Shown piece after piece: positions 3,890 to 64,000 of a DNA stretch of 64,000 nt (its first letter is position 1; each line of letters begins with the position of its first letter). The position numbers and the translations under genes were made by a program. This DNA is from Bacteroidales bacterium. Lineage in GTDB: Bacteria > Bacteroidota > Bacteroidia > Bacteroidales > UBA3663. The stretch covers positions 19,680 through 83,679 of the forward strand of contig JAFZBE010000047.1 in NCBI GenBank assembly GCA_017561935.1, written 5' to 3'. The notes under the pieces were generated by a model, which was not told the origin of the DNA, ran no database searches, and was given only the letters and a program-made list of their open reading frames with translations.

Positions 3890-4291
3890 CTAGAACTCAA
3901 AGGTCTTGGTAGGAGCCACAAATGAGCAAATTGATGCCTTGACCTGAGTCAGATAATACACCGCTGTATTGCCATCATTCTCGTTGTACATGGCACGCAG
4001 CTCGGGATAGGCATCGAGCATTGCCTTCTTAGCCTCGATACGGGGATCCTCGACCAACACTGCAGCGATGCGGCACCATTTGCCCTGTCCATCGAAAGCG
4101 CTGATCTCTACCTTCGGATTAGCGGCAATCTGATGTGCCACGGGCTTCACATGTCCTGTCTGAACATAAAGTTTGCCCTCGAACTCGATGAATGTCCCAA
4201 AAGGACGAACGCGGGGCTGATCGCCCTCGCACGTAGCAATGAAGTAGCACGGACAGCTCTTCACAAACTTCAAGATCTCTTCCATGGTCAA
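3890..4291 (-). CDS. pyridoxamine 5'-phosphate oxidase-like FMN-binding family protein
   Basis: 133 aa with a split-barrel PNPOx-like pattern (CYFIATCEGDQPRVRPFG...GKLYVQTG...KVEISAF). Confidence 0.65.
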   Translation of the reverse strand: MTMEEILKFVKSCPCYFIATCEGDQPRVRPFGTFIEFEGKLYVQTGHVKPVAHQIAANPKVEISAFDGQGKWCRIAAVLVEDPRIEAKKAMLDAYPELRAMYNENDGNTAVYYLTQVKASICSFVAPTKTFEF

Positions 4292-10265: not shown

Positions 10266-11486
10266 CTAATATAGACCTACCTTGCCGACTCCAAAACGCT
10301 TGTGGTAAATCAGGGCTTTGCAACGGAACCAAAGGTCCACAAATGGGGTATAAAGGTCACAGAGGATAGGCAGTCCAACCATCGGATGCTGCTTCAACAC
10401 CTTTGCCGAACTGATGTGGGTATAGACAATAAGTGCCAGGCGAATCAGAAGCATAGCAAGCACTGCGCAGAGTGTAGTCCATGCATGCTGATGCGTGCCT
10501 GAGCCGCTAAAGATCCGAATGATGGCGTAAACTATCAGGATGAGGCCGGGGATAACTGTGGCATATCGGGTGAAGTATTCGACTAACTTCACCACGGCAG
10601 GCACCCATGGATAGAGGCGGGAGGTGAAACCTCGGTTCAAACGGTCGATGGACCAGTTGATGAAAAGAGGTCGTGAAAGGTCGTTCATGACTGTATCGGG
10701 CCGACAATCGACAGCCACGTTGCCATTGCGAGCCACATCTGCCACGAAGAGATCGTCTTCGCCAGGCTGCATCTTGAGATGTCGTTGGAAACCCTGACTG
10801 CGATTGGCATAGAACGTCTGCTTGCGGAATGCCAGGTTCTGCCCCCAACCTGCATACGCCTTCATCGAAAGAGTGATTCCGAACATCAGCAGCAAGCGCT
10901 GAAAGAGATCGAACTGACAAAAACGAGACAAGAAACTCGTGTGACGCTCATAGACAACAGGACCCAGAACGACTTCGATGCCTGGGTTGGCAAAATGGCT
11001 TGCTAATCCACTGATCCACTCGGCTGATGCAGGCAAACACTCGGCATGTGTCGTTAGGATGATGTCATAGTGTGAAGATTTCGTGCCAAGCAATACGGCA
11101 AGCTTGCGGTGGCTCATGGCTCGCGTCTTCTCGTCAATCTTGGTATGCATCAGGATGTCGGAACGCTGGTCCATCATAGAGAGTACGTCTTGCGTATCGT
11201 CGCATGAATTGTCGTCAAGCACGATAACCTCGTATTTGGGATAATTCTGGCTTAGCAGCACAGGAAGATTTCGTGCCAAAGCTTCAGCCTGGTTGTGGCT
11301 ATAGACCAACACACTGACGCCAGGCAGTTCGCCGCCCGCATAAACGGGAGCCTTTGCCTGGCGACAAGCTTGTCGACGTAACCCTTGCCAAATGATCAGG
11401 TTCAGGATAAGTTGGATGAGCCAGGCCACCACAAAGATGGTAGCCATGGACACCAGCCAAAAGGGATAATCTATTGTGACGTTCAT
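10266..11486 (-). CDS. membrane-anchored family-2 glycosyltransferase
   Basis: VSVLVYSHNQAEALARNLPVLLSQNYPKYEVIVLDDNSCDDT (GT2 DxD region), flanked by TM helices. Confidence 0.75.
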   Translation of the reverse strand: MNVTIDYPFWLVSMATIFVVAWLIQLILNLIIWQGLRRQACRQAKAPVYAGGELPGVSVLVYSHNQAEALARNLPVLLSQNYPKYEVIVLDDNSCDDTQDVLSMMDQRSDILMHTKIDEKTRAMSHRKLAVLLGTKSSHYDIILTTHAECLPASAEWISGLASHFANPGIEVVLGPVVYERHTSFLSRFCQFDLFQRLLLMFGITLSMKAYAGWGQNLAFRKQTFYANRSQGFQRHLKMQPGEDDLFVADVARNGNVAVDCRPDTVMNDLSRPLFINWSIDRLNRGFTSRLYPWVPAVVKLVEYFTRYATVIPGLILIVYAIIRIFSGSGTHQHAWTTLCAVLAMLLIRLALIVYTHISSAKVLKQHPMVGLPILCDLYTPFVDLWFRCKALIYHKRFGVGKVGLY

Positions 11487-11491
11487 TCAAG

Positions 11492-12439
11492 TCAGAGGGT
11501 GGCCAGATAGTTGCTCACGTTCTGTTCGATACGTGCTGCGATATCGCCATTGTCGGCTGCGGGGATAAACTTCTCACCAACGATATGCTCGTAGAGTTCA
11601 ATGTAGCGATCGCTCACCGAACGTGCATACTCGTCGGTAATCTCGGGCATCACCTGTCCGGGTTCGTTCATGAAGTTGTGGTCGATGAGCCACTGGCGTA
11701 CGAACTCCTTCGAAAGCTGCTTTTGAGGCAAGCCTTTCTCGAACTTCTCCTCATAACCATCGGCATAGAAATAACGGCTGGAGTCGGGAGTGTGTATTTC
11801 GTCGATGAGATAGACCTTACCGTCCTTCTTGCCGAACTCATATTTGGTATCGACGAGTATCAGACCCTTGGCCGCAGCAATCTCGGTGCCACGCTTGAAG
11901 AGGGCACGTGTGTATTGCTCAACAAGCTCATAATCCTCCTTGCTGACCAGCCCCTGGGCAATGATCTCCTCCTTCGAGATATTGAGGTCGTGTCCCTCCT
12001 CGGCTTTGGTTGTTGGGGTAATGATAGGCTCGGGGAAACGCTCGTTTTCGCGCATACCCTCAGGAAGTTTAACACCGCACAACTCACGGCAGCCTTTCTT
12101 GTATTCGCGCCAAGCAGAACCGGTAAGGTAGCCACGAATAATCATCTCAACACGGAAACCTTCGCATTTGAGGCCTACTGTGACCATAGGATCGGGTGTT
12201 GCCAACTTCCAGTTGGGTACGATATCGGCAGTAGCATCGAGAAACTTTGCAGCGATCTGGTTCAAAACCTGGCCCTTGTAGGGTATGCCTTTAGGAAGAA
12301 TAACATCGAATGCGGAGATGCGGTCGGTAGCAACCATCACCATCAGGTCATCGTTAATGTTATAGACGTCACGAACCTTGCCGTGATAGACAGATTTCTG
12401 ACCTTTGAAGTTGAAGTCAGTGCGAGTGAGTGCGCTCAT
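11492..12439 (-). CDS. purC: phosphoribosylaminoimidazole-succinocarboxamide synthase
   Basis: YHGKVRDVY...[11 protein letters not shown]...[11 protein letters not shown], 315 aa. Confidence 0.95.
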
Positions 12440-46104: not shown

Positions 46105-46498
46105 GGGGCTGACTGGCTTTGACAGCGGGATGGGCCTCTGTGTAAGCATGCAGTGAGATGTCACCTATCACTATAATACATGATGGCGAAATATAATTGG
46201 CGAGAATAACTACGCTCTTGCTGCTTAATCGAAGTATAGTAGATTGAAGCTTAATCGGCTGCCAAGGGTGGCTGACAAGACATCACCCCAAGGTCCTTGT
46301 TCCGAGACTGAGGAACCGGTGGTGCAGGTAAATCGGGACTAATCAGGGTCTGCCTCGCGGCTCTGGTGAAATTTTTGAGGATAAGGTGCCGCTTGGTGGT
46401 CCAGGTCTTGGCGACACCCGACAATCCAGGCTGGAATAAGCATGTAGAAAGCGCCGATACCCCCTGTTTGGACGAGGGTTCGAACCCCTCCAGCTCCA
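46105..46498 (+). ncRNA. ssrA: tmRNA (transfer-messenger RNA)
   Basis: The 5' GGGGCTGA pairs with the 3' CAGCTCC-A acceptor end. T-arm GGTTCGAACCCCTC. Tag ORF ggc gag aat aac tac gct ctt gct gct taa = GENNYALAA* at 46199-46228. Confidence 0.92.
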
Positions 46499-46500
46499 CA

Positions 46501-46538
46501 AAAATCCTACGCAGAGTACGTTCTGCGTAGGATTTTTT
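46501..46538. terminator. rho-independent terminator of ssrA (may also end the convergent minus-strand operon)
   Basis: aaaatcctacgcaga / tctgcgtaggatttt is a 15-bp stem followed by a T run. Confidence 0.85.
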
Positions 46539-46594
46539 GTCAACTAATCTTTTTACTAACCTTTTTTGTCAAATAGTTCTGACTATACCATTTT

Positions 46595-47617
46595 TCATTC
46601 TTTAATGATAAACCCTATGAGCCGAGGTCCGCTTCCTCCACCACAGGCAAGGAGGAAAAGAATGAAGATAATGCTGCCAATCCATCCCATCAGATAGACC
46701 ATGTGGCCGATGAACATCACCAGGAACAGGAAAGTGGCCAATGCACTCACCACATAGAGGGGGACATAAATCGCAAAGCCGATCAGTCCCGTCACACCCT
46801 TGTCGCCATCGATAAACATCGCGATAAGATGGAGTGCCAATCCGACGAAGAGAAGCAGAATGATCCACGGCTGGAGGAATGAGAAGAAGAAAAAGGTGAG
46901 CAGATAAAGGATTCCGCAGCCAAATACCGTAAGCGTACCGATATGTTTTGCGGCCGATCGCGCTTCATCCTCTCCCGCCAATCCGAAAAAGATGGATTGG
47001 ACAAAGAACAGGATGGACAGCATGACCAGCCAGAACACGATGGAGAACAACTCATCGTGAACGAAGAATCCAGGACTTCCACTATAGCCCAGCATACATT
47101 TCAACTCGTAATAGCCTAAAATGGCCAATCCCATCAAAGGGATGTATTTCCCCAAACGGAAGCTGCCAAAAATCTTGGATAATATCCAGCAAACCAACAA
47201 TACGATAAGCGGCAAGAAAAGCATATACTCGAAATAGCGGGTGGATTTGCTTTGCTCAATATGGATGCCAACGGAAGACAATGCATTCAGGAAATGTTTC
47301 TGAACGACCACAGCGGGATCCTTCACGTCTGCCTCGGGTTTTCCACCTACATCACCCGAAGTCGGTGATTTCCCTTTCTCCAAATACCTTGAAGCTACAT
47401 AGAATGTCTCGCCGGCATCATTCCTGCAGGTGGCCCATCCATTGACGATGGTATCCACGAGGATGACATCACCCTTCTTCAGTTCGCCCATTTTTTCGGC
47501 CGAGCCTTTAGGTGCTACCCTCATGTTCAGATTCGGGGAATTCACCACATAGGTTTCTGCTGCATAGCCCGCCATGCATAGCAGTAACAGTACGATAATT
47601 GTGACTAGTCTTTTCAT
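46595..47617 (-). CDS. signal-peptide SH3b-domain protein with about 6 C-terminal TM helices
   Basis: MKRLVTIIVLLLLCMAGYAA. YVVNSPNLNMRVAPKGSAEKMGELKKGDVILVDTIVNGWATC..FYVASRYL (bacterial SH3 pattern). Then long hydrophobic segments. Confidence 0.65.
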   Translation of the reverse strand: MKRLVTIIVLLLLCMAGYAAETYVVNSPNLNMRVAPKGSAEKMGELKKGDVILVDTIVNGWATCRNDAGETFYVASRYLEKGKSPTSGDVGGKPEADVKDPAVVVQKHFLNALSSVGIHIEQSKSTRYFEYMLFLPLIVLLVCWILSKIFGSFRLGKYIPLMGLAILGYYELKCMLGYSGSPGFFVHDELFSIVFWLVMLSILFFVQSIFFGLAGEDEARSAAKHIGTLTVFGCGILYLLTFFFFSFLQPWIILLLFVGLALHLIAMFIDGDKGVTGLIGFAIYVPLYVVSALATFLFLVMFIGHMVYLMGWIGSIIFILFLLACGGGSGPRLIGFIIKE

Positions 47618-47635
47618 AATATTATATTTTTGCCA

Positions 47636-50600
47636 TTAGTTTTTCAGTCCATCAATCTGGTTGAGCAGTTGCATGGTAGAAGCCATGTCGGCCTGTTCGA
47701 GAGCAACAAGACGTTCCTGCAAAGCCCTCTGTTTCAAAAGATATTCCAATCCCACACAGACCTCTGCCATATCAAGACGACCATAGTCGATAGCTGTCTG
47801 ACAAAGCATGCGCAGGAATTCGATCAACAGCTGGAAATCCTCGACACGACCTTTCTCGAAAACGGATTCATTGAGTATCGAGGCTATCTTCTCGCGATAC
47901 TCATCGGCCGAAGCCATATCATTATTCACCATATCCACCTGGGCACGAGTGGCATAGTAGTGCAGGGCTACGTTACGCACCTTGAGCGAATCGGGCATCA
48001 TCTTTGTCATCTTTTCGACCACCTCACCGGCAGATTTCAGGAAAAGAAGCGCCTTCGCGCCATCACCTGCACTCATTGCTGACACACGAGCCTGACGAAC
48101 CTTGTTGATCACAAAACTGCGCATCTTGTCGTCGTTATCAGGATCAGCATCAAGCTTCATTGACAGGATGTCCGATGCCGCCTGCAGGCTTGCCAGCGCA
48201 TCGGCGGTCTTTCCCTGCTTGTCGAGCATCTCGCCCAACTCATCGAAGATCAATGCCTTGTTCATCGGGTCGGGCTCGGCATCAGGCTTCTGACCAACCT
48301 TTTCCAATACCTGACGTCCAAGTGCTACTGCCTCATCGGTCTTGCCGCTTACCTTCAGCCGCATCATCTGATAATAGGCTGCCACCAGCAAATCGTCGGC
48401 ATGAAGGGAATCGGGGTTGCTCTCGAACAACTCTTCGAAGAGCTTGATAGCCTGTCCGGCACTCTGCTGGGCCTGGTCATATTCGTGGAAGAACTGGAAC
48501 AACATTCTGCCCGTGCCATCCAGTGCCGCCGCATAACGACGGACAACCTCGGGATTGCCTTCACGGAAACGCCGGTAGTTGTTGAAGACGGCATACTCAT
48601 GTTGCTTCTGATAGTAGAACGCGCTATTGTAGTCGCCATACTGCTCATAGTACTTGCTGATAACCGAATAGGCCAACGAATAGGCCGTAGTGGTGATAGC
48701 CGTATTGTTATGAGCACGTTTCATATCATTGATGGCATCGCGCAGCATCGATATCAGATTCTCGGCCGACTTGTGATCGCCATGATAGAGGTACAACTCG
48801 TTGCACAATTCGCCGGCGCTGCACAGGTTGTAGAAACTGAGCTGCAGGTACAATTCTGTTGCTGCATTACCATTCCTGTTAATATCCAGTATTGTACGGA
48901 AAGTGTGGAGAGCCTCAGCCACCCGTCCTGGCATATCGGCATGACTTGAGCTGTTCTTGCATAGGACGTTCCGCAACATCGAGGACAGGGAAGCAGCCGA
49001 TGCAGCCTCTTCTTCAGGAAGATGTTGCATTTGCCGATAGTCATCATAGTCGGGAATGGCTGCACCGAGAACTGCCGAAGCCTCGTCGGCCATATTGAGC
49101 ATCAGACGACCCATGAAGTCATCACCGGCCTCGAAAATAAGACCTGAGCCCTGGTGCAACAGCAAGGACATGGTATGTTTGCTGTTCACCCAACTGAAGG
49201 AATCGTAAACGTATGCCTCTCCTTTCCTGATCTGCCCGGCAGTTTCGGTATTGAAGATGCCCACTATCTCGGCTGCTGTCTTCTTATCGCCTGTATAGCT
49301 GAGGAACGTGGCAATATCCCTGGCAAGCACAACCGCATTGTCATTCCCGATATCCAGGACTTTCCTGAACCACTGGACAAAGTCATGACGGCGCTCGGAA
49401 AGGGCGATGGCGGCATTCACCAGATGGGGCCATACGAGAGAGGATGTATTGGAAAGAACCGCCTTCAGAACCTCTTCGGTGGGATTGTTGATTGCAATGG
49501 CTCCCATCTCGCGGCAAGCAAACTCATCATTCGGATTCTGATAAAGCAGATTGCCCATTCTGGCCGTGATATTCGCGTAGAAGTTCCCGAACGGCTCGTC
49601 ATCCTCATGGTGAACATACTTCACAATCCGGCGATAGCTCTGATAGGAAAAGTCAATGACGCCTGTACGGGAGTCGATCGTCAACAGGTCGCCCAACCAT
49701 CGTTTCATTGAAGAAAACTCCAACTGGTTCCAATAATCTCCCGCAAATGCCTGGAAATCCTGTTCACGCAAGCCGAAGCCGGTAGCAGCCAACAGGCGGA
49801 TGGAAGTCCATAGGAAACCGAAATTCATGAAACGGGCTGCGTCGTGGAGAAATACGATGAACAACTGTTCCGGATAAGGTGCAATCCGGCCCATCTCGTC
49901 GGTGATCTCCGTCAGGTAATTCTCGATGGCGGCATCTCCGTCGCCACGCATTCGGATCTGCTCATAATCGTAGGCTGTCAGACTTGTCAGTTTGCGTACC
50001 ATCAGCACATCCCATAACGGGCAGCCGCAACACAGTTCGTCATGCTCGGAGCGGGCATCCATCAGGTGATTGAGGACATTCTGCGGAAGGCTCTTGCCTT
50101 TCGCCTTCATCAATTCCCGAACAATCTGCCCACCTTCATCGGCATTGACAGGAGGCAAGAGAACCTTCGCGACATCCCATTCGGAGAAAAGATTCATCTT
50201 CTCGCTTTCTGCGGTAGCGATGAGCATACAGAAGTTCTGAAGTCCACCGAACATGAACTCATAGACATTCTGCATCAGATGAAGATCGTCGATGAGAAGG
50301 AGTGGTGGCATTTCAAGGTCCTTGGTAGCATGATAGAACTCCTCGGCCAGTTCACCGAACTCCACATCCTCGTCAAGACTGTAGCGGCGCTGTGGATGGA
50401 TTCGGGGGTCGGCAAGCCATTTTTTCAGCGCCAAAGCGGGAGTGTCGCCATAACGGGTAAAGTGGATGAACACCAACAGATCATCGACCTCCCCAAATCT
50501 TCGGTATGTTTCGCAGAGGAAAGCGGTTTTCCCATAGCCATAGCGGGCATAGATTAGACGGGGTTTCTGGTCTTCATCATATCTTGTCGCAATCTCGTTC

Positions 50601-51421
50601 AAGAAATTCTTGCGCGAATCGCAGTTCACATAGTGCTCACCTTCTTTTGCAATCTTCATGAGGTCGGCATCCGCCATCTGCTGGAACTCATTCACAGGAT
50701 TCTCCACTGCATTACTACCCTCATATAACATAATCTGAGCTTGCAGGGTCTTGATGAGGAACGATCCCAAGTCATCGAGTCCGGTCAACGATCGACCATC
50801 CCATCGGCAATTGTACTCATATATATTATTGCTACAGCTGGCTTTTTGGCAACCATCCTCAATCTTCTGCTTCAATGATGCAAGTTTGCGGTCGGCCTCG
50901 TCATTCAGGTTGCAGAACTTACGGCGAGCGACATCGTCCATCTGCTCATAGACGGCTGGATTGCGGAAACAGAACAGACAACGGCGCAAGGAGTTGGCAT
51001 CCATCAGGGCACCGAAGAGCATCTCAAGCTCTGTAACACTCTTCTGCTCACGGGATTCCTTACGGATGTACGTTCTTTCCTCGTCGGTCATCTCATCCAG
51101 CATCACCTGCCAACTTTCGGCCGATGGTATCCAGCCATAACGGTCGCCAAGCAGACCGATAAAGAATGGACGTGACTGGCGAATCTCAGAGATACACTCA
51201 CGCAGCACAATATTCTCCCGTTCATTCTCGTCGGCGTCCTGGGTGTTTACCCCCCAGCGCAAGTCGATGAACTGCAGCGTGAAGCCCTGTGGCGCCAGCA
51301 GCTGCTGAAGAGTCGGCGCGACTCTGTTCATGATCAGATCGCGCTCAGCATCCATGTCCTTGAAGGTACTGCTCAGGAACACCTTGATGTTCTTCCCGTT
51401 CTGCATGGCAGTATATGTCAT
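47636..51421 (-). CDS. STAND-type NTPase: DUF4062-like N-terminal domain + P-loop NTPase + C-terminal TPR-like repeats
   Basis: KVFLSSTFKDMDAERDL...FIGLLGDRYGWIP (aa 13-99). Walker A ARYGYGKT (nt 50525-50548). Walker B LLLIDDL (nt 50282-50302). The last ~400 aa form a helical repeat region with TPR-like periodicity. Confidence 0.8.
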   Translation of the reverse strand: MTYTAMQNGKNIKVFLSSTFKDMDAERDLIMNRVAPTLQQLLAPQGFTLQFIDLRWGVNTQDADENERENIVLRECISEIRQSRPFFIGLLGDRYGWIPSAESWQVMLDEMTDEERTYIRKESREQKSVTELEMLFGALMDANSLRRCLFCFRNPAVYEQMDDVARRKFCNLNDEADRKLASLKQKIEDGCQKASCSNNIYEYNCRWDGRSLTGLDDLGSFLIKTLQAQIMLYEGSNAVENPVNEFQQMADADLMKIAKEGEHYVNCDSRKNFLNEIATRYDEDQKPRLIYARYGYGKTAFLCETYRRFGEVDDLLVFIHFTRYGDTPALALKKWLADPRIHPQRRYSLDEDVEFGELAEEFYHATKDLEMPPLLLIDDLHLMQNVYEFMFGGLQNFCMLIATAESEKMNLFSEWDVAKVLLPPVNADEGGQIVRELMKAKGKSLPQNVLNHLMDARSEHDELCCGCPLWDVLMVRKLTSLTAYDYEQIRMRGDGDAAIENYLTEITDEMGRIAPYPEQLFIVFLHDAARFMNFGFLWTSIRLLAATGFGLREQDFQAFAGDYWNQLEFSSMKRWLGDLLTIDSRTGVIDFSYQSYRRIVKYVHHEDDEPFGNFYANITARMGNLLYQNPNDEFACREMGAIAINNPTEEVLKAVLSNTSSLVWPHLVNAAIALSERRHDFVQWFRKVLDIGNDNAVVLARDIATFLSYTGDKKTAAEIVGIFNTETAGQIRKGEAYVYDSFSWVNSKHTMSLLLHQGSGLIFEAGDDFMGRLMLNMADEASAVLGAAIPDYDDYRQMQHLPEEEAASAASLSSMLRNVLCKNSSSHADMPGRVAEALHTFRTILDINRNGNAATELYLQLSFYNLCSAGELCNELYLYHGDHKSAENLISMLRDAINDMKRAHNNTAITTTAYSLAYSVISKYYEQYGDYNSAFYYQKQHEYAVFNNYRRFREGNPEVVRRYAAALDGTGRMLFQFFHEYDQAQQSAGQAIKLFEELFESNPDSLHADDLLVAAYYQMMRLKVSGKTDEAVALGRQVLEKVGQKPDAEPDPMNKALIFDELGEMLDKQGKTADALASLQAASDILSMKLDADPDNDDKMRSFVINKVRQARVSAMSAGDGAKALLFLKSAGEVVEKMTKMMPDSLKVRNVALHYYATRAQVDMVNNDMASADEYREKIASILNESVFEKGRVEDFQLLIEFLRMLCQTAIDYGRLDMAEVCVGLEYLLKQRALQERLVALEQADMASTMQLLNQIDGLKN

Positions 51422-52362
51422 AAGGATGTCATATATGGTCGAATGTGGGAGAATATGCCCTCCTGCAATTGATCGACATTGATCATCAGATAGAGCAACC
51501 CCATGTCATAGAAACGCAGGTCGAAATAGTCGCTGGCATCGGTATCCAACTGCAACAGCTGTACCCATCCCGTTCCAAACTCGTTGTCCACATCCTCCTC
51601 GTAGGGCTTGCCTAAAAGTCGGAACCCATCACCACGCACTGGACCTTCTGAGAAGGTGATGATATGAGGCGATATCATATCGTCCTCCTGGAATGGATTT
51701 ACGCGTTTCAATTTGCAGGAGGGCACATCGGCATAAATGACCTTGACAGCATATTCCGGCCACTTGCCCAGTCCGTATGGTTGCTTCACGTCATAGCCGA
51801 GAAAATAGTCTATCTCGCCGAAGAACCAAAGCATCCCCCGCTTGGGCAACCAGTCATTATCGGGAAGATCCCCGCAGTTGATCTGACAAATGAACTGCAT
51901 GGGATACCTATTGCCGTCTTCATCGGTCGTGAAGGGATACATATCCTCGGAAGGCAACTGTGGGGCATCCCAGAAATAACTGCTGCCCGAAGGCTGTGCG
52001 ACGTCGGATGGAGTCAGTTCCATATCAATCCCATGGGGCCTTGCCAATTTGACACAATGCTGTATCTCGGATTGAATCCCCCACATGGCAGCTTCCGAAT
52101 CTGCCCGTATTCCTTCACTCAGTACCACCTCCTCACCCGTCTTGATAGTGTACTCCATGCCTCTGTACTCCAGGCCGAGCTGTCTTCCGTCGTAGAATGT
52201 CACTACAGGATTATCCCCCTTGCAATTATTCCAATGAGGTAGTTCTTGTCCTACGACAAGTTCCTCTTCAGGAATTTCGTACTGCTGCATGAGACTCCTG
52301 CCCATATTGACACCACGGTCGTGGGGTATTTCATAGATGTTGATGTAACAAACTGAAGACAT
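51418..52362 (-). CDS. DUF1963 (YwqG-like) domain protein
   Basis: YPMQFICQINCGDLPDNDWLPKRGMLWFFGE and WVQLLQLDTD...FYDMGLLYLMI match the DUF1963 pattern. The stop overlaps the STAND start (ATGA). Confidence 0.65.
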   Translation of the reverse strand: MSSVCYINIYEIPHDRGVNMGRSLMQQYEIPEEELVVGQELPHWNNCKGDNPVVTFYDGRQLGLEYRGMEYTIKTGEEVVLSEGIRADSEAAMWGIQSEIQHCVKLARPHGIDMELTPSDVAQPSGSSYFWDAPQLPSEDMYPFTTDEDGNRYPMQFICQINCGDLPDNDWLPKRGMLWFFGEIDYFLGYDVKQPYGLGKWPEYAVKVIYADVPSCKLKRVNPFQEDDMISPHIITFSEGPVRGDGFRLLGKPYEEDVDNEFGTGWVQLLQLDTDASDYFDLRFYDMGLLYLMINVDQLQEGIFSHIRPYMTSL

Positions 52363-52373
52363 CGTTATATCGT

Positions 52374-52985
52374 TTAGTCAAATATTACTCTTGGGTTCAT
52401 TATTCCTGGCGAACGCCATTCTATACCATATTCTGCCAACAGTTCACGTTTAGCCGACCAATAGCGGAAACAGAAGCCCATGTGGCGTGGCACACCCTTC
52501 AGTTCTTCATAGAGTCTTCGCTCTACTTCGTCAATCACCGACAGATAAGCATCGCTGTCCTCAACAGGGTCGTATTTCAGTGAGGGATTCTCCAGCCGGT
52601 CAAGACTGTACTCACAGTTCTCTTTGTCTTCCTCATCAATGGCATGATGGAGAGCTTTCTGAAAGGCTTTCTTTGCCATCAGGCGACGCGTATTCATCGA
52701 GTAGCATTCGCCTATGTCAAAATATGAGCGACACTTCCATTTGGCATTCTCTTCCGTATCCGGCTGGTCGTCGAGGAGCTCTTCGGCCTTAGCCAGAAGA
52801 GGCATCGCCAACCAACCCCGCTCATCACGGATATAGTTATCAGCCAGCTTTATCAATGCTATCACATAGTCGGAAATAGTCCCCTGATTAGGATTCTGCT
52901 CGTAAATCCGTCTGGTGATATCCACCAACTTCTCCTCATCAGAAGCCAGGTTTTCTGCCTGGCGAAGAACTGTTTTAGTATCCAT
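52374..52985 (-). CDS. hypothetical helical protein with conserved-looking C-terminal module
   Basis: 203 aa with a helical/TPR-like N-half. C-terminus RHMGFCFRYWSAKRELLAEYGIEWRSPGIMNPRVIFD. It is the first gene of the operon. Confidence 0.55.
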   Translation of the reverse strand: MDTKTVLRQAENLASDEEKLVDITRRIYEQNPNQGTISDYVIALIKLADNYIRDERGWLAMPLLAKAEELLDDQPDTEENAKWKCRSYFDIGECYSMNTRRLMAKKAFQKALHHAIDEEDKENCEYSLDRLENPSLKYDPVEDSDAYLSVIDEVERRLYEELKGVPRHMGFCFRYWSAKRELLAEYGIEWRSPGIMNPRVIFD

Positions 52986-55437: not shown

Positions 55438-56856
55438 TTATTGGTTAGAGAGCATGTCGGCTATTAATGGACATTCTCCTTTGCGCCACAAGCATTTATT
55501 ATTTAATTGACGTTCATATAATATGTATGCGGTGAACTCCATAAGGGATGATACATAATCGAACTGTACTCCCCCTTTAGGGCTATTTATTCCATCAAGA
55601 ATCCATTCTTCAATTCCATCTGGAACATCCTGAAAAAAGTAATATTTTTCTTCCTCACTGGCATTGGGTGGTAGATGTTTATTATAAACCAAGAAGTTTA
55701 CATCAAGAAGGTCTATGTCAATTCCAAATAGTTCTTTCCAGATACATTTCATTTCGTCATTTTGAGAAATGGCATTTTCAAGTGTCCTATCTACAGGTTC
55801 GTCATCAAATTCAGGATCATATTCAACTCTAAATTCATTATGACACAAATCTCCTTTAAGAAGGATATCCCAAGCTTTTGTGACATAGTATAAAGGTACT
55901 TCATAGGTGCCACCTTTTACTACGGTATTCAAAGATAGATCGTATCGTTTATTTACAATACGTTCTTTAAAAACTTCAGGAAGAATATAAAATACGCAAC
56001 CGATACTAATTATATCAGTGTTTTTTTCCCATTCTTTATTGGTTCTATTCCATTTGTCGTTTTCAATAATCTTCTCAACCACTGACTCAAAGCGCGTTTT
56101 AAGTTCTGGATAATTGTTTGCGGCAATTCCCCAACCTTCTACTTCAGTCTTATCAGGTGAAATAAAATTCCCATATAATCGTAAGTCTTTGTCTGAAATC
56201 TTAGTTGTTGTTGAATAGCCTTTATATTCAAGATGGTATTGCTTAGCTTGATAAAAGGATTCAATTATTTCAGACTTCAATCTTATTTTTTTGCTATTTC
56301 TGAGAGTAGTGTATATCCTTCGGACCAAGTCTTCAACGCGTGAAAACATACTCTTCCCAATTCTGTCTTCAGTAGAATTATATGTATAAAAGATACAGCA
56401 TTCTTCTAATGGAACACTAAGATCGCTTTTCCAATATTTCTCATGATAATTGCCTGGATTGCCTATCAATAGTTTAATGCCCATAGTGTAGATGTCGCCT
56501 GAATTCTTTTCATTGCCAAGAATAAACTCCTTTGGAGAATCTTTTTTGTTTAAAAGTAGATTTTCGAGCCATTCAAATATATGCTTGATATCTGTCATCG
56601 TGAAATCAAAATAGAGACGTTCATTGTAGAATCCATTAACGTTAATCTCCAATATTCCGGACTGTTTGGAATAGTTCAGAATGTCGGTAATTATATCACC
56701 TAAATGATTAGGCAAATTATTCATAAGTTTATCAATTTCCTTTTGTATTGTTTCCTCTTTCATATTCGAATGTATAAATGATGATTCATAATCAATGTCT
56801 ATATCGCAGGCATGAGTGTGTGTCTTTCCCTTTTTTACCTTGAAATGGGTAAACAT
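55438..56856 (-). CDS. hypothetical protein (472 aa) in an AT-rich patch
   Basis: Long clean ORF with a K/N/I/E/Y-rich product. It is visibly lower in GC than the flanking genes. I recognise no motif. Confidence 0.6.
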   Translation of the reverse strand: MFTHFKVKKGKTHTHACDIDIDYESSFIHSNMKEETIQKEIDKLMNNLPNHLGDIITDILNYSKQSGILEINVNGFYNERLYFDFTMTDIKHIFEWLENLLLNKKDSPKEFILGNEKNSGDIYTMGIKLLIGNPGNYHEKYWKSDLSVPLEECCIFYTYNSTEDRIGKSMFSRVEDLVRRIYTTLRNSKKIRLKSEIIESFYQAKQYHLEYKGYSTTTKISDKDLRLYGNFISPDKTEVEGWGIAANNYPELKTRFESVVEKIIENDKWNRTNKEWEKNTDIISIGCVFYILPEVFKERIVNKRYDLSLNTVVKGGTYEVPLYYVTKAWDILLKGDLCHNEFRVEYDPEFDDEPVDRTLENAISQNDEMKCIWKELFGIDIDLLDVNFLVYNKHLPPNASEEEKYYFFQDVPDGIEEWILDGINSPKGGVQFDYVSSLMEFTAYILYERQLNNKCLWRKGECPLIADMLSNQ

Positions 56857-57189: not shown

Positions 57190-58737
57190 TCAATAATTCT
57201 CCTTCCTCATATATCTGAGAAGGAAACGGGCATCTGACTGTTTCTCTTCTGGTGAACTCTCGGAGCAGAACAGGGGTTCTTCGTAGATGTCAGGCAGGTA
57301 ATTATGATCCAACAGATATAATATGGCTTCGGTGCTGATGCTCTGATCGTTCCAGAACATTGTTATAGCCTCGTCTTGAGCAATCGTGGCGTCATAGTAG
57401 GGATTGGTTGGGTCGGCAATGCAGGGTGTATAGCCAAACGAGAAGTGCATAGCGAACTTTTGGGCGTTCTTGTCGATAAAGAACAGGGGATGCTTGCCTG
57501 TCAGGCCTTTCCTATTGAGGAAGTCAAGTTGTTCAGACCGATAGCCAATGTTCTTCATCAGATAGTCCTTCATCACCTCTCGGTTTTCGAAGTAATGGAT
57601 TTCCTTGCCGCCACACCGTTTCAATAGCATTTTGCCTGTTACGTCTTGGGTTCCTTCTGGCTTGTAGTTGGGGTCTTCCTTTACGAATTCATCCCAATGG
57701 TTAGCCATATTTTCGATGGGAATCATGATGCCGTTCATGTGCCAATTGGATAGATACTTCACAAAGATGGCACAGCAACCGTCAAGTTTGTGTAATTCTT
57801 CATCGTCAACCGTCATCTCGTCACGGGCAACCCGTATCTTTTTGCCATTGGTGCTGAGCAGCTGTAGCCACTGCCCGTTATCCTCGATTGAGAATCGATA
57901 ATAGCCCATGGGCAGAACCTCTATATCCATGATTTCCTGAGCCTCATGGAGCATCGACTTGGTGCGCATCAGTGCAGCAACGTATTCCTTTGGTTTGAGT
58001 GCCAGAGGACCAATCTTGTAAGCGAAGATGCTGTGCATAATGGCATAGAACATCCGCATTGACTCTGCAGGCATCCTTTCGCTCATGTCCTCGGCCTCCT
58101 TCATGCGTTTCTCAATCAGATTCTCTCCTGCAACACTTCTGGTCAGGTAGCAGTCCGTGAATGTCCATATCAAGGCAACTCGCATCTTCTGGAAATCCTC
58201 ACTGGCCTGCTGGAGCATATCGTTGATGTCATCCGTCAGCTCGTCGTTGATGGGAGATTGTTCAAATACGCTGTCCAGTCTTTCGAATGCTACAGTCGCC
58301 ATTCTTCTAAGCGATTCGTCATCAGCATTCCACCAGGAATCATTTTTCTCTGTCGCAGCATGCCATACGATGAATCTTACAGCCTCAAAACATGGCTCAT
58401 CGGGATAATACTCTGCGTCAGCATCGTGATACAAGGGAACAGCCTGGCCGAACATCTGTTGGCACAGGGCTGAAAACGACCTCCATTGTCCACTATCGGC
58501 CACGATGTCCTCCATGTAGTTCGCCAACAGGACGGCTGAGAGCCACATGATGGATGAAGTCTGCTCACCTAAATCCAAGCGCAATCGTTTGAAATCATCG
58601 AGTAGCTGGTTGGCCAGCTTCGTATAATATGCGTCTGTGTCGTATGCTGCCATTGAGGGATGCGACTGGCGTAAGTCCATCGCCACTATCCTTTGACTAT
58701 TTCTTGTTTTCATATCAAAATAATTATCATTCGTCAT
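57190..58737 (-). CDS. hypothetical protein (about 515 aa)
   Basis: Long clean ORF. Start moved to MTNDNYF (58737) because the -7 box lies inside the maximal ORF. MKTRN (58713) is an alternative start. Confidence 0.6.
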   Translation of the reverse strand: MTNDNYFDMKTRNSQRIVAMDLRQSHPSMAAYDTDAYYTKLANQLLDDFKRLRLDLGEQTSSIMWLSAVLLANYMEDIVADSGQWRSFSALCQQMFGQAVPLYHDADAEYYPDEPCFEAVRFIVWHAATEKNDSWWNADDESLRRMATVAFERLDSVFEQSPINDELTDDINDMLQQASEDFQKMRVALIWTFTDCYLTRSVAGENLIEKRMKEAEDMSERMPAESMRMFYAIMHSIFAYKIGPLALKPKEYVAALMRTKSMLHEAQEIMDIEVLPMGYYRFSIEDNGQWLQLLSTNGKKIRVARDEMTVDDEELHKLDGCCAIFVKYLSNWHMNGIMIPIENMANHWDEFVKEDPNYKPEGTQDVTGKMLLKRCGGKEIHYFENREVMKDYLMKNIGYRSEQLDFLNRKGLTGKHPLFFIDKNAQKFAMHFSFGYTPCIADPTNPYYDATIAQDEAITMFWNDQSISTEAILYLLDHNYLPDIYEEPLFCSESSPEEKQSDARFLLRYMRKENY

Positions 58738-58745
58738 TTTCCGTG

Positions 58746-58753
58746 CAAATATA
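58746..58753 (-). promoter_or_regulatory. -7 box (TATATTTG) for the 57190-58737 gene
   Basis: The plus strand reads caaatata, 8 nt from the ATG at 58737, directly downstream of the 42-bp repeat array. Confidence 0.5.
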
Positions 58754-58859
58754 AGCATTATTTTTGACATAAGATGCATTCAGCAAGAAAAATGAAGGGT
58801 TGGGTTCATTTTTTCCAAAATTCAACCGATTGCACACGGACAAAAACGTGGGAGGATGA

Positions 58860-59280
58860 TGGAAAGTCGAGGTATAACCAATTTTGGCCAAGAAAGGGTA
58901 TTCTTCGGTGGGAGAAAGACCAAAGTTGGCCAAGAAAGGGTATGCCGCGATGGGAGCATGACCAGTTTTGGCCAAGAAAGGGTATGCTGCGGTTGGATAG
59001 AGCACTCTGACGGGCGACAGAGTGCTTGCTCCGGTTGAAGTATGACCAAAGTTGGCCAAGAAAGGGTATGCCGACGTTGGAGAATGACCAGTTTTGGCTA
59101 AGAAAGGGTATGTCTCGGTTGGATAGAGCACTCTGACGGGCGACAGGATGCTTGCTCCGGTTGGAATATGACCGATCTTGGCCGAGAAAGGGTATGCGGA
59201 GGTTGGAGAATGACCATTTTCGGCCGAGAAAGGGTATGCCGCGATAGGAGTATAACCAGTCTTGGCCAAGAATGGTCATA
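58860..59280. repeat. 42-bp tandem repeat array with 126-bp higher-order periodicity
   Basis: The core GGCCAAGAAAGGGTA (and variants) starts at 58886, 58928, 58970, 59054, 59096, 59180, 59222 and 59264, so spacings are 42 or 84 bp. Every third unit is replaced by a hairpin-bearing unit (agcactctg-N8-cagagtgct at 59001-59026, degenerate copy at 59127-59152). Confidence 0.85.
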
Positions 59281-60067: not shown

Positions 60068-60934
60068 CTAATCGTAGAGGGCGTGGAGGTCGGTCTGACT
60101 CAGGACTTCGTTATGATGGAGGACGAGGTTGTGGGTCAGACGGCCGCGATGGCCGTAGAGGATGTGCTGGAAACGGTGGCGCCAGTCCCACGAGAGGAGC
60201 TGGTAGTCGTTGCAGCGGCGAGTGAAACCGAAGAAGCCGATGCGGATGATCTTGCCGACCGAGTCGGGTGGCAGTGTGTGGAGGATGTCATTGCAGCAGC
60301 GTACGAGCGGATACTGGATGACATTGATCATACGCTGCTGGCGGGCAGCCTTGGTCATTCGACTGACGGTGCGAGGGCTGCGTCCTGTTGCCTTGGCCAG
60401 ATAGTTCACTGACAAGATGGTCTTTGCCGCATGAGAAGCACTTCCCGTGAGGGGAAGCCCCTTCGATTGTAACTCGTCGGCTCGGGTCTTGGCACTGATG
60501 TTGGTCAGAAGAAGCAGTTGGCGCATCTCACTTTCGATTTCAGTGACGTGGAGGTTTTCGCGAGGGCAGCACTTCACCTTTCCCACCACCATCTCGAGGC
60601 TTTTGCGTCCGCCCTTGAGGGTGACTTGGGTGGCGTACATCTTCTTCAGCGAACGGGCAACGATGATCTGCCGTCCGTTGGGGCACGTCGTCATCTGGAA
60701 CAGGCTGTTGCCTTCGCGGATGGCATCGAGGAGATTGTGCGCCTTGGTGTAGCCGAGGTGGAAGTCGCTGCGGAACTTCTTCTCGCTGGTGAAGATGTAG
60801 GTGCTGCTGGGACTAAGGCACTTCATGGCTACACTGAGGGCGACGAGGCTCCACTGCAAGGGGTCTTCCTTGACCTCCTGCAGCAGTGCCATCGGCACGT
60901 TGATGTAGTCCATTGTCAGTACTCTTGGTCTCAT
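60068..60934 (-). CDS. hypothetical protein (288 aa) with a probable helix-turn-helix
   Basis: Start placed at MRPRVLTMDYINVP, 17 nt after the first TAACTTTG box. LSVNYLAKATGRSPRTVSRMTKAARQQ is HTH-like. No family recognised. Confidence 0.6.
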   Translation of the reverse strand: MRPRVLTMDYINVPMALLQEVKEDPLQWSLVALSVAMKCLSPSSTYIFTSEKKFRSDFHLGYTKAHNLLDAIREGNSLFQMTTCPNGRQIIVARSLKKMYATQVTLKGGRKSLEMVVGKVKCCPRENLHVTEIESEMRQLLLLTNISAKTRADELQSKGLPLTGSASHAAKTILSVNYLAKATGRSPRTVSRMTKAARQQRMINVIQYPLVRCCNDILHTLPPDSVGKIIRIGFFGFTRRCNDYQLLSWDWRHRFQHILYGHRGRLTHNLVLHHNEVLSQTDLHALYD

Positions 60935-60944
60935 TGGTTTTTTT

Positions 60945-61400
60945 CGTTGCAAAGTTACGAAAAGGAAATTTGGCACTGTCCGAATTTGTCCGAATTTGTC
61001 CGAATTTGTCAGTTTTCGGAACAATGCTTTTTCACGATGCAAAGTTACGAAAAAGAAAATTGGCAGTGTCAGTTTGTGTCACTTTATGTCACTTTCCGAT
61101 ATATTGCCTCTTTTTCGTTGCAAAGTTACGAAATCGAAATTTGGCACTGTCCGCATTTGTCCGCATATGTCCGCTTATGTCCGTTTTCAGCAAAGCAATG
61201 TCTCGTCATTTGCGTTGCAAAGTTACGAAATAGTATTTTGGCATTGTCACCTTAGTGTCACCCTACGCATGGCGATGTCACCTTAGTGTCACCTTAATGT
61301 CACCTTACGAAAAGGAGCGCCTCTTTTTCGCTGCAAAGTTACGAAAAACAAATTTGGCAATGTCCAGCTTTGTCCAGCTATGTCCATTTGTGTCCAATTA
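60945..61400 (-). promoter_or_regulatory. array of five promoter-like modules, each with its own 10-11-bp TGTC-phased microrepeat
   Basis: GCAAAGTTACGAAA (minus strand: TTTCGTAACTTTGC, i.e. a TAACTTTG -7 box) occurs at 60959, 61039, 61120, 61217 and 61333. Each is followed by A(A/T)TTGGCAnTGTC and 3-5 repeats. See finding. Confidence 0.6.
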
Positions 61401-61612
61401 ATTTCGGGATGATTTATGTTTTAAAGAGTGTTGGAGGGAAGTATGATATTAATGCAAATTAAAAGTGGCAAACTAAGACGATATGGAAGAAGAAGATACT
61501 CAGATAGAAAAAAAACAGACCCAAAATTAGTGTAATTGTAGATTAAGTACTATTTTTGCAATGGAACGCAAAAATAATGAAACCTCTGCCACAGAATGGC
61601 GTACCTTAATCG

Positions 61613-61620
61613 TACTTTTG
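61613..61620 (+). promoter_or_regulatory. -7 box (TACTTTTG) for the WYL-regulator operon
   Basis: tacttttg lies 18 nt upstream of the ATG at 61639. Confidence 0.5.
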
Positions 61621-61638
61621 CACAAAAAATGAAATAAT

Positions 61639-62571
61639 ATGGTTGACAACGATCGAGGACAAAGCTTGATAAGCAAGTACGTTTGGGTGATAGACACTAT
61701 CTATCGCTGTCGTAAGATCTCGTTCAAAGAATTGAATGAGAGATGGCTGCGTGATACGGATATAAGCAGAGGTGTGGATATCCCCAAGCGAACTTTTGAC
61801 AACTGGCGATATGTCATCTGGGATATGTTCGGCATCAGTATCGTTAACGAGAATCGTGGCGATTATCGTTATTACATCGAGAACGAAGAGGACATCAGTG
61901 GGAACGGACTCCGCTCTTGGCTTTACAATACGTTCTGCGTGAGCAACGCTGTGGCCAACAGTCAAAGTGTCAAGGATCGTATCATCTTGGAATATGTGCC
62001 ATCGGGTCAGAATTATCTGAAACGTATCATTGATGCGATGAAGGAAAACCGTGTCCTCAACATAACCTACCGTAGCTATTGGAAAGACAATGAGAATAAT
62101 TTCGATGTGCAGCCCTACTGTGTGAAGTTGTATCGTCAACGATGGTATATGGTGGCACAAAGCATCAATCCGAATTATTTTGAGAAAGGACCACGTATCT
62201 ATGCTTTGGATCGTATCAAGAAACTCTTCATCAAGGATGAGCCTTTCGAAATGCCGAAGGATTGGAGTGCCCGAGATTTCTTTGATGGATGCTTTGGTAT
62301 CATTGCTGAGCAGACTGTTGAGGTTCAGCCGGTGAAACTTAAGGTTTCTGCACGACAGGCCAATTATATCCGCGATTTGAAAATGCATGAGTCGCAGGAA
62401 GAGATAGAACGTAACGAGGAATATAGCATTTTCAGAGTCTTTCTCCGTCCTGAGTTCGATTTCCAGCAGGAAATACTTTGGAATGGCGAGGACATGGAAG
62501 TGCTTGAGCCTCTTTGGCTCCGTCAGGAGATAGCTGAAAAGGTAAAAAGAATGTGGGATAAATATCAATAA
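61639..62571 (+). CDS. HTH-WYL-domain transcriptional regulator (BrxR/CapW-like architecture)
   Basis: N-terminal HTH (YVWVIDTIYRCRKISFKELNERW). WYL core RVLNITYRSYW...FDVQPYCVKLYRQRWYMVAQS....RIYALDRI. C-terminal extension. Confidence 0.8.
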   Translation: MVDNDRGQSLISKYVWVIDTIYRCRKISFKELNERWLRDTDISRGVDIPKRTFDNWRYVIWDMFGISIVNENRGDYRYYIENEEDISGNGLRSWLYNTFCVSNAVANSQSVKDRIILEYVPSGQNYLKRIIDAMKENRVLNITYRSYWKDNENNFDVQPYCVKLYRQRWYMVAQSINPNYFEKGPRIYALDRIKKLFIKDEPFEMPKDWSARDFFDGCFGIIAEQTVEVQPVKLKVSARQANYIRDLKMHESQEEIERNEEYSIFRVFLRPEFDFQQEILWNGEDMEVLEPLWLRQEIAEKVKRMWDKYQ

Positions 62572-62576
62572 ATGTT

Positions 62577-63653
62577 ATGGAACAAGATTTTAGTTATGAG
62601 GGCATTCGCAGGCTATGCTATCGTCATAGAAATGAAATCATTGAAATACATGAACACCCTCATCATTCTATCCTAAATTTTGATAATTTGTTTCGGAAGC
62701 TTGAAGGTAGGGAAGTTAGGTATATCGATCCTCTTGGGAAGTATAGATTTGCCAGATTTGGTCATTTCTACTTCAACGATAATGGTGTGATGATGTTGAT
62801 TACAGACGATGAAGAATACACACGGTTTCATCGTCCTGGCATTCTCTCACATACCCTTTGGTCCACAGTCCCTGTCATTTATGCTGGCATAGATACACGG
62901 ATACTGGACGATTGCAATCGTCCGATATTTACGGGAGATGTAGTAACCGATGTAGGAAATAGAGTAACATCGTACGTCCGTTATTTTCATCCCACGATTC
63001 CCGGATTGGCAGGCGATAATTGCGAGTCACAGTACAGACCTGGCCTTACATGGCACAAAGAAGGCACAGTATTCAGCGGTATCAGTCGCAAACTCTTCAA
63101 TCATTTCGACCTCTATGCCTTTGACTGGCCAAGGGAATCATTTTGCCCAAACGGGATAAGTCCCGAAGATGTAAGAGAGAGGGCCAAAGCAGCAATGGAA
63201 GAGCCTGCCTTCGTTGATAATCTTGCTACGACAAAACCCAAGCGAAGAATCTATACAGACACAATAGATGAGGCAATTCACGAAGGGTGTGTGGTCGCAT
63301 ACTTCAGAGGACAATCGCCTTTTGACGATGGCACACCTGGCTACGCGGTATTTTGCGACAATTATCCTCAAGGCTATAAAGGAAAGTGCTATGAGATAAT
63401 AATAGACGACAGGCATAATTATCCGAAGAGTCTGGAGTCTGGCATCAAAAAGTTCCTCCTTCATGCCCATAAACATCCCGAAACCACCTTCGCCCTTTGT
63501 GACTTTGTTCAAGATTTAAAAATTCCAAATGATATCCTTTCTATTATTGCACTCTTGTTTCAAGATTGGTTCTCCTTCAACATCCCCAATGTGATCCTTC
63601 CAGGATGGATTTTCTGGCAAATCGGGCTTGACGAATGTGTTGGAAAAGATTAA
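62577..63653 (+). CDS. hypothetical protein (358 aa)
   Basis: Clean ORF starting 6 nt after the WYL gene's stop. I recognise no motif. Confidence 0.6.
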   Translation: MEQDFSYEGIRRLCYRHRNEIIEIHEHPHHSILNFDNLFRKLEGREVRYIDPLGKYRFARFGHFYFNDNGVMMLITDDEEYTRFHRPGILSHTLWSTVPVIYAGIDTRILDDCNRPIFTGDVVTDVGNRVTSYVRYFHPTIPGLAGDNCESQYRPGLTWHKEGTVFSGISRKLFNHFDLYAFDWPRESFCPNGISPEDVRERAKAAMEEPAFVDNLATTKPKRRIYTDTIDEAIHEGCVVAYFRGQSPFDDGTPGYAVFCDNYPQGYKGKCYEIIIDDRHNYPKSLESGIKKFLLHAHKHPETTFALCDFVQDLKIPNDILSIIALLFQDWFSFNIPNVILPGWIFWQIGLDECVGKD

Positions 63654-63678
63654 TATAAAAACTAAAAACATTATTACT

Positions 63679-64000
63679 ATGGAAACAAAAAGCAAAGAAA
63701 AAAACAATGACGAAAGAAGTGAAAAACAACCAGAAAAGGCACGATTAGGTTCAATTGGTGAAAATTTAGTCATTGCAAAATTGATGGAACTAGGATGGGA
63801 CGCATTCAATGCTAACTGTTCTATCAAAAACTATAAATCTATTGATATTATATGTTTAAATATCGACGCAATTGAGAGCCCAGAAAAAGATTGGAAACCT
63901 GCGACATCGCTTATCCAAGTTAAGACGTCGGTTGGAAATAATATTCCTGTCGGATTTAGCCTCAAAGAAGCATGCGATAAGGACTATCTATGGAAAATGG
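63679..64000 (+). CDS. PD-(D/E)xK nuclease-fold-like protein, N-terminal part only (runs off right edge)
   Basis: My own translation: METKSKEKNNDERSEKQPEKARLGSIGENLVIAKLMELGWDAFNANCSIKNYKSIDIICLN...SLIQVKTS... The E ... D ... QxK spacing resembles restriction-endonuclease-like folds. Confidence 0.45.
   Translation, partial: METKSKEKNNDERSEKQPEKARLGSIGENLVIAKLMELGWDAFNANCSIKNYKSIDIICLNIDAIESPEKDWKPATSLIQVKTSVGNNIPVGFSLKEACDKDYLWKM

Follow-up and report, generated by a model that had tools for sequence, protein, structure and literature searches.

A WYL-regulator-led cassette of rumen Bacteroidales with a YopX-like two-domain protein and a predicted PD-(D/E)xK nuclease: a candidate defence module

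The right-hand end of a 64-kb stretch of DNA from an uncultured Bacteroidales bacterium (the window hereafter; contig JAFZBE010000047.1, positions 19,680 to 83,679, assembly GCA_017561935.1) carries three closely spaced genes on the forward strand. They encode a 310-aa WYL-WCX regulator (open reading frame (ORF) 1, 61639–62571), a two-domain protein of 358 aa (ORF2, 62577–63653) and a predicted PD-(D/E)xK nuclease (ORF3, from 63679), and are preceded by a candidate operator (61581–61607) and a promoter box (61613–61620). We lean, if only by a little, towards reading this WYL-controlled operon, with its nuclease and YopX-like partner, as a candidate system against phages or other mobile genetic elements that is absent from PADLOC. 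The defence role is suggested by guilt by association, that is, by the genes that neighbour its relatives, whereas gene content, folds and the conservation of neighbourhood and operator can be observed directly.

A preliminary description of the window, made from the letters alone, had placed all three ORFs correctly, but the gap between ORF1 and ORF2, given there as 6 nt, comes to 5 nt; the ORF2 stop and the ORF3 start are 25 nt apart. As the window ends within ORF3 (63679–64000, the first 107 of 204 residues), the tail of this gene and the following ORF4 were read from a metagenome contig (ena:ERZ27256882:k141_2680771, L001) that matches the final 3000 nt of the window without a difference and continues beyond its end, which provides the rightward extension proposed earlier. 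On this contig the full ORF3 gene spans 11103–11717 (204 aa, ending at window-equivalent position 64293) and is followed by ORF4 (441/463 aa) and then by housekeeping Memo/AMMECR1, a radical-SAM gene and a pectate lyase gene. The low G+C content ascribed to the segment was borne out, with 0.40–0.42 between 61 and 64 kb compared with about 0.51 across most of the window. The genomes closest to the window lineage are metagenome-assembled genomes (MAGs) of rumen Bacteroidales.

ORF2 had been described as a protein without any motif that could be placed. Structure and profile comparison now resolve it into a YopX-like domain A and a degenerate domain B that resembles the A1S_2505 N-terminal domain. 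The sequence of ORF2 matches nothing in Pfam (at E ≤ 0.1), PADLOC or PHROGs, and its NCBIfam match to the A1S_2505 N-terminal family (NF049995; 13.9 bits, E = 0.047) does not pass the cut-off of 45 bits. The AlphaFold2 (AF2) model is of high quality (predicted local distance difference test (pLDDT) 90.3, predicted template-modelling score (pTM) 0.87). With Foldseek, domain A (about residues 45–170) retrieved many YopX proteins from BFVD at probabilities of 0.9–1.0, with template-modelling scores on the target of 0.43–0.56 and E-values of only 5e-3 to 0.1, and from the PDB the phage-37 protein ORF041 (2p84) at a probability of 0.84. In addition to the YopX fold, domain A carries the signature IFTGD(V/I)V. 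Against the Pfam YopX family (PF09643, cut-off 22.4 bits), one of the more distant relatives scored 23.4 bits (L049) and four others 18–22 bits (P0196, P0224, P0247 and P0281), while ORF2 of the window itself stays below the gathering threshold. Domain B (about residues 253–350) aligned with the intact A1S_2505 domain in hhalign (95.8%, E = 7e-9), although over domain positions 38–131 only. It lacks about the first 37 positions, including the invariant Gly/His-rich segment FVFGSNLxGxHxGGAA.

The superfamily to which ORF2 belongs is rare (147 proteins among 1.84 billion representatives) and comes in several architectures. Domain A may stand alone (229–248 aa), be followed by B as in the window, or be preceded by it in a permuted B-A form (373–402 aa), in which B is intact and reaches 86–144 bits against NF049995. 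Further arrangements are LigT (2H phosphoesterase)-A-B, A-DUF1643, ADP-ribosylglycohydrolase-B and, in one protein (P0254), WYL-WCX-A. ORF2 differs from the YopX and A1S_2505 families in falling below both thresholds, in fusing both domains and in residing on bacterial chromosomes rather than on phages: the searches used returned no relative of ORF2 itself among 2.9 million viral contigs (IMG/VR), the INPHARED phages or the PLSDB plasmids. YopX is a very common phage protein family, and the intact B domain is likewise common in phages (469 records), mostly in the early regions of N4-like phages. As a small protein of its own (phage loci L218 and L219) it is an early gene near RNAP1 in these phages. 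Two phage depositors label the intact domain "Macro/Poa1p" or "ADP-ribosylglycohydrolase", and in one locus (L075, 1515–2699) an ADP-ribosylglycohydrolase fused to an intact A1S_2505 domain lies directly upstream of an ORF3 homolog. Such fusions and labels hint at ADP-ribose-related chemistry for the A1S_2505 domain. Because PDB sequence profiles, Foldseek and Pfam gave domain B only low-probability matches to PARG and macro folds, the macro-like idea draws on depositor annotations and fusions. Our literature search on YopX, Nmad2/3 and A1S_2505 returned no functional data.

For ORF3, the guess of a restriction-endonuclease-like fold, made from the part of the gene in the window with its GENLV, SIDIIC and IQVKTS segments, is supported by structure. 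We modelled a homolog (P0072) that is 90% identical to the protein of the window lineage (AF2, pLDDT 89.4). Foldseek ranks 1–21 are all PD-(D/E)xK proteins, including the SPARDA nuclease DREN (probability 1.0), Hjc, EcoRV, I-Ssp6803I and Cas4. The E-values are modest (1e-3 to 1e-2), but the matches agree with each other and the catalytic residues line up: E28, D56 and Q80 do not vary among 30–47 family sequences, and K82 of the Q80-V-K82 segment hardly does. The model thus shows a restriction-endonuclease-like PD-(D/E)xK fold, with an alpha-beta-beta-beta-alpha-beta core, and its catalytic motif, and ORF3 would be expected to act as a nuclease. With DREN (of the short prokaryotic Argonaute system SPARDA), archaeal Hjc and YraN/UPF0102 it shares the alpha-beta-beta-beta core and the E...D...xK layout. 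It differs from them in an additional conserved C-terminal region of about 70 residues (SAPAG...WLEGK...CE..W.NIW), in lacking both an Argonaute partner and any significant sequence match to library families, and in the glutamine that stands in for an acidic residue. ORF3 does have weak NCBIfam matches to YraN, and some family members are named "Holliday junction resolvase-like" by JGI. Clustered at 90% identity, the family still has more than 200 members, which were all sampled from gut or rumen and come mostly from Bacteroidales.

That a WYL regulator leads the cassette is confirmed by the WYL (PF13280, 3.2e-15) and WCX (PF25583, 2.9e-11) domains that Pfam finds in ORF1, which also matches the WYL models of PADLOC with E-values down to 2e-29. 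Its earlier assignment to the BrxR/CapW type was not sustained. In comparison with the PDB, the family profile of ORF1 matched DriD (1.2e-14) and PafBC (6e-14) far better than CapW (0.027–0.65) and BrxR (7qfz, 0.71). CapW and BrxR are repressors (PMC9122588, PMC9122601), DriD is an activator of transcription that senses single-stranded DNA (ssDNA) (PMC12041258), and DdaA, a WYL activator of Moraxellaceae, controls the DNA-damage response together with defence genes (PMC12392091). Because the profile favours DriD/PafBC over BrxR/CapW, a repressor role of ORF1 has to be regarded as an assumption, the sequence not telling the direction of control. ORF1 nevertheless shares with BrxR and CapW (PMC9122601, PMC9122589, PMC9122588) the WYL and WCX domains, which a putative N-terminal winged helix-turn-helix (HTH) would precede, the position at the 5' end of a variable cassette and, in related loci, the vicinity of restriction-type genes, whereas a YopX-like protein with a PD-(D/E)xK nuclease matches no system described with them. 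DriD, PafBC and DdaA, which provide the best sequence matches for the WYL-WCX part, are homodimers with a nucleic-acid ligand and with sites close to the core promoter (PMC12041258, PMC12392091). They differ from ORF1 in controlling chromosomal DNA-damage regulons, while the ORF1 type occurs only in patchy, low-G+C islands with swappable cargo, and the N-terminal DNA-binding domain of ORF1 does not align to theirs.

Upstream of ORF1, where an inverted-repeat operator had been suspected, we identified a conserved candidate (61581–61607, forward strand). It is an imperfect 11-5-11 inverted repeat, AACCTCTGCCA-CAGAA-TGGCGTACCTT, with 7 of the 11 arm positions complementary. The block AACCTCTGCCA-N5-TGGCG(T/C)ACC, with the core AACCTCTGCCAC-N4-TGGCG(T/C)ACC, is kept in 19 aligned loci whose flanks farther upstream are unrelated, and it has one exact match in the whole window. 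TAnnTTTG is the -7 consensus of Bacteroides promoters, and a box of this type, TACTTTTG (61613–61620, forward strand), stands 5 nt past the operator and, in related loci, about 26 nt before the WYL ATG. The box attributed to the WYL gene in the preliminary description thus exists and is conserved in position; the motif by itself is not significant, as TAnnTTTG occurs 46 times on the two strands of the window. Within 150 nt upstream of ORF2 or ORF3 there is no -7 box, which makes a single transcript for ORF1, ORF2 and ORF3 likely. The median WYL-ORF2 gap is 3 nt (19 loci).

Related islands contain second sites in the form of a perfect 11-5-11 palindrome, GACCTCTGCCA-N5-TGGCAGAGGTC (perfect form GACCTCTGCCACCAGCTGGCAGAGGTC), which precede either another promoter after a PLD gene or an AAA gene. 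At four positions (L016 9910; L018 15442; L046 12506; L122, minus strand, 7735 on the reverse complement) a perfect or near-perfect GACCTCTGCCA-N5-TGGC(A/G)GAGGTC with a -7 box precedes a gene of 190–210 aa (MVD(L/I)HDYDI...), in L016 and L018 just past a PLD-nuclease gene. These palindromes look like a second target of the same family of WYL regulators. The island of BrxR has two R-BOXes, where the protein binds imperfect repeats of 11 bp separated by a 5-bp spacer (PMC9122601), so that the geometry at the regulator's own promoter and, in the relatives, the two sites per island are alike. Another candidate, the 9-nt perfect inverted repeat TATTTTTGC-N8-GCAAAAATA (61551–61576), was rejected since it is not conserved in other loci; a further TAnnTTTG box lies inside it, 30 nt before the conserved operator. 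Scanning genome contigs with the operator pattern ACCTCTGCCAYNNNNTGGC gave no usable regulon: among the matches listed, most were chance occurrences in unrelated phyla and a few were extra Bacteroidales loci (L110, L122 and L129).

Neighbourhoods were counted in species-representative genomes, dozens of which show the gene order, far beyond chance, with a patchy distribution. A WYL gene adjoins 22 of the 31 distinct A-B genes (immediately upstream of 18, downstream of four), and the WYL-WCX-A fusion of P0254 joins regulator domains and domain A in one protein. Of 36 ORF3 genes, 26 are immediately preceded by a domain-A gene, at a median gap of 16 nt. The gene that follows an A-B ORF2 is ORF3 (5), a GIY-YIG-like gene (5), Nmad2 with Nmad3 (4), an RNase T-type exonuclease (4) or another gene. 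The preliminary description's gene trio is accordingly conserved as a neighbourhood but not as a fixed trio: the core consists of the operator, the WYL gene and ORF2 with a swappable third gene, and ORF2-like genes with ORF3 form a separate tight pairing beside it. The exchange is seen most directly in comparison with L005. DNA homology to the window lineage (84%) starts exactly at the operator and stops at the ORF2 stop codon, after which L005 has Nmad2/3 in the place of ORF3. Farther downstream, related loci often contain GmrSD pairs, PLD, RhuM-Fic and AAA ATPase genes, and a distant domain-A protein adjoins GmrSD and the type I protein HsdR. Across 19 paired loci, identity to the window protein averages 72% for WYL versus 43% for ORF2, with ORF2 the faster-diverging protein in all 19.

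A cassette of WYL, ORF2, exonuclease and GmrSD with a variant operator was also seen in a Firmicutes-assigned MAG (L029, CAYFQD010000033.1, labelled Oscillospiraceae), reflecting either horizontal transfer or a binning error. ORF4 (L001 11792–13183, window-equivalent 64368–65759) represents a rare family (31 clusters) whose proteins are about 463 aa long. We considered it as a fourth component and rejected it, as its homologs occur without WYL, ORF2 and ORF3 and as the close relative L006 does not have it. Elsewhere it lies alone between housekeeping genes or beside a 438-aa gene and a DUF1016/YhcG nuclease, and it is probably an independent island gene or a separate insertion; searches of the PDB and Pfam gave nothing beyond a sub-threshold DUF4299 match.

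Between a tmRNA region (46105–52985) and about 66 kb the G+C content is patchy, and this stretch may form a single variable island that carries further conflict genes; no integrase was found. A tmRNA gene (46105–46499) is followed by genes for a 1260-aa DUF4062+TPR protein (47636–51421, minus strand) and a DUF1963 protein (51418–52362, minus strand). We looked for an integrase beside the tmRNA gene, but the adjacent ORFs encode an SH3 protein and the DUF4062-TPR protein. The stretch of lowest G+C in the window (0.34–0.38) contains a 472-aa ORF (55438–56856, minus strand) for which family libraries give no significant match and NCBIfam a sub-threshold one (E = 0.0065). Beside a DUF3843 gene (57190–58779, minus strand) there is a tandem array (58877–59272) of about 9.4 copies with a 42-nt period and a 126-nt higher order, every unit of which contains the palindrome TTGGCCAA; the array has no Rfam match, and an Rfam scan of 52–64 kb found nothing. 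Dense short tandem repeats of iteron-like appearance (60977–61400) comprise 10–11-nt units (TGTCCGAATT, TGTCCGCATA and ATGTCACCTTA), an 81-nt repeat and three 20-nt GCAATGTCCAGCTTTGTCCA units that overlap one another. They reach across the start of an HTH-like ORF of 324 aa (60068–61042, minus strand), covering part of its 5' end and of the region upstream of it. These repeats are common only to the closest lineage (L001, L002 and L006). The HTH-like gene, the iteron-like repeats and the DUF3843 gene were rejected as parts of the module, since they are confined to this lineage.

Taken together, we propose that the cassette is one operon of a variable genomic island in uncultured rumen Bacteroidales, transcribed from a single Bacteroidetes-type promoter whose upstream side would be overlapped by the palindrome at about -45 to -19. 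Bound to this operator as a dimer, the HTH-WYL-WCX protein ORF1 would set the transcription of its own gene, ORF2 and ORF3. Its WYL domain may respond to a signal of nucleic-acid type, for instance ssDNA or some other product that arises on infection or DNA damage, which would alter operator occupancy and raise expression. ORF3, a small Hjc/DREN-like PD-(D/E)xK DNA nuclease, would be the executing enzyme, and ORF2 its dedicated partner, which may either detect the trigger or target or act as a gate for the nuclease. Behind ORF2 there would be an exchangeable effector slot that takes ORF3, Nmad2 with Nmad3 or a GIY-YIG-like protein, often with an RNase T-type exonuclease next. The most likely role would be defence against phages or other mobile DNA, a reading that follows from the neighbours in related loci (GmrSD, PLD, RhuM-Fic and the RNase T exonuclease) and from low G+C, patchy distribution and fast divergence of ORF2. 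The candidate defence module of undescribed type put forward in the preliminary description holds insofar as ORF2, ORF3 and ORF4 have no PADLOC match and related loci lie amid GmrSD, PLD, RhuM-Fic and AAA genes; its function is argued by association. A further, tentative possibility is that the YopX-like/A1S_2505-like protein and ORF3 represent a new class of anti-phage system, in which captured phage early-protein domains would serve as the sensing or gating subunit of a nuclease within a WYL-controlled chassis that has a defined operator and an exchangeable effector slot (nuclease, Nmad2/3 or GIY-YIG). One of the captured domains is then probably macro-like and would handle ADP-ribose-type ligands, an idea with the slender basis of fusions to ADP-ribosylglycohydrolase and 2H phosphoesterase and the two depositor labels.

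Several observations weigh against the defence reading. The cassette belongs to no system in PADLOC-DB v2, as a check suggested earlier now tells, and WYL is its sole matching component (v2.0.0; no match of ORF2, ORF3 or ORF4 at E ≤ 1); the window's own copy has no adjacent recognised defence gene. By sequence, DriD and PafBC, which are activators in the DNA-damage response, stand nearer to ORF1 than BrxR and CapW do, and no profile detected an HTH in its N-terminal 110 residues, the HTH being suggested by the sequence pattern alone. The operator, centred near -32, fits repression but would also fit PafBC-like activation. The (D/E)xK motif of ORF3 has Q in its acidic position, a known variant type. 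The role of ORF2 as sensor or partner is a guess, given that the YopX and A1S_2505 families have no described function, and the counts of A-only and B-A genes are biased, as those loci were found via ORF3. Lastly, in a closely related Bacteroidales MAG (RGIG7573, L006) a clean deletion at 4206–4253, corresponding to window positions 61601–62543, has removed the right arm of the operator, the -7 box and WYL to about codon 302, and ORF4 is also absent. Because ORF2 and ORF3 are kept there without WYL and -7 box, the module can decay or be dispensable.

Part of this evidence would also suit a module of the DNA-damage response or repair, in which a DriD/PafBC/DdaA-like activator switched by ssDNA induces ORF3, ORF2 and, in relatives, a DEDDh exonuclease. 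The operator abuts the -7 box at the place where a -33 element would be expected, which resembles the PafBC arrangement. The profile matches of ORF1 (1e-14 for DriD and 6e-14 for PafBC versus 0.03–0.7 for CapW/BrxR) favour such a module, and a Hjc-like nuclease and an RNase T/DnaQ-like exonuclease are plausible repair enzymes. In support, DriD senses ssDNA and activates transcription (PMC12041258), and the WYL activator of Moraxellaceae governs damage-response and defence genes alike (PMC12392091). We nevertheless consider this explanation rather unlikely: a patchy, island-like spread with low G+C and swappable downstream genes is not what a core repair regulon looks like, in the loci examined the operator occurs at island promoters only, the neighbours include type IV restriction (GmrSD), PLD and Fic genes, and ORF2 diverges fast.

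The tight pairing of ORF2-like genes with ORF3 at short gaps and the RhuM-Fic and other toxin-like genes nearby would in turn be compatible with a toxin-antitoxin-like addiction module, in which ORF3 is a toxic nuclease, ORF2 its neutraliser and WYL a brake, and which mainly stabilises a mobile island rather than conferring immunity. The joint loss of WYL and -7 box in L006 is what would be expected if unregulated expression were harmful, and just upstream of the cassette the window has the iteron-like repeats and an HTH-like gene. ORF2, however, far exceeds typical antitoxins in size and complexity, ORF3 is not adjacent to many of the A-B ORF2 genes, and neither integrase nor conjugation genes were seen around the cassette, which makes such a module improbable; many abortive-infection systems share the same formal architecture, so that it overlaps with the defence reading. 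We judge it still less probable that the cassette is a domesticated or decaying remnant of a phage or satellite with a role in superinfection exclusion or counter-defence, for example through the handling of ADP-ribose-type modifications. YopX being a phage family, the 469 phage records of the intact A1S_2505 domain in N4-like early regions, the fusions of related proteins to ADP-ribosylglycohydrolase or LigT phosphoesterase and two loci with ORF3 and B-A on IMG/VR contigs argue for this origin. Against it, neither ORF2 homologs nor the A-only form were found in IMG/VR and INPHARED by the searches used, neither in the window nor in most loci is the cassette bordered by structural, integrase or replication genes of phages, and its flanks consist of housekeeping genes.

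WYL-led defence islands are an established concept, although to our knowledge nearly all tested examples come from Proteobacteria, and phage immunity of gut and rumen Bacteroidales is poorly charted. While the WYL-led kind of cassette is thus already known, the libraries and literature searched contain no description of its cargo, of the domain composition and permutations of ORF2, of the swappable slot or of the Bacteroidales operator. The cassette is one of many uncharacterised island cassettes, yet a well-delimited and readily testable candidate, and its combination of a DriD/PafBC-like regulator with a BrxR-like operator lends itself to the question of whether WYL regulators on islands act as activators or as repressors. 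Should the cassette prove to be a defence module, it would represent a system type peculiar to Bacteroidales of the gut and rumen, provide a testable operator-regulator pair for Bacteroidetes promoters and exemplify a modular layout of regulator, adaptor and exchangeable effector. It would also tie the widespread phage families YopX and A1S_2505 to nuclease-based conflict systems and, should the new anti-phage class prove true, provide a first functional context for YopX.

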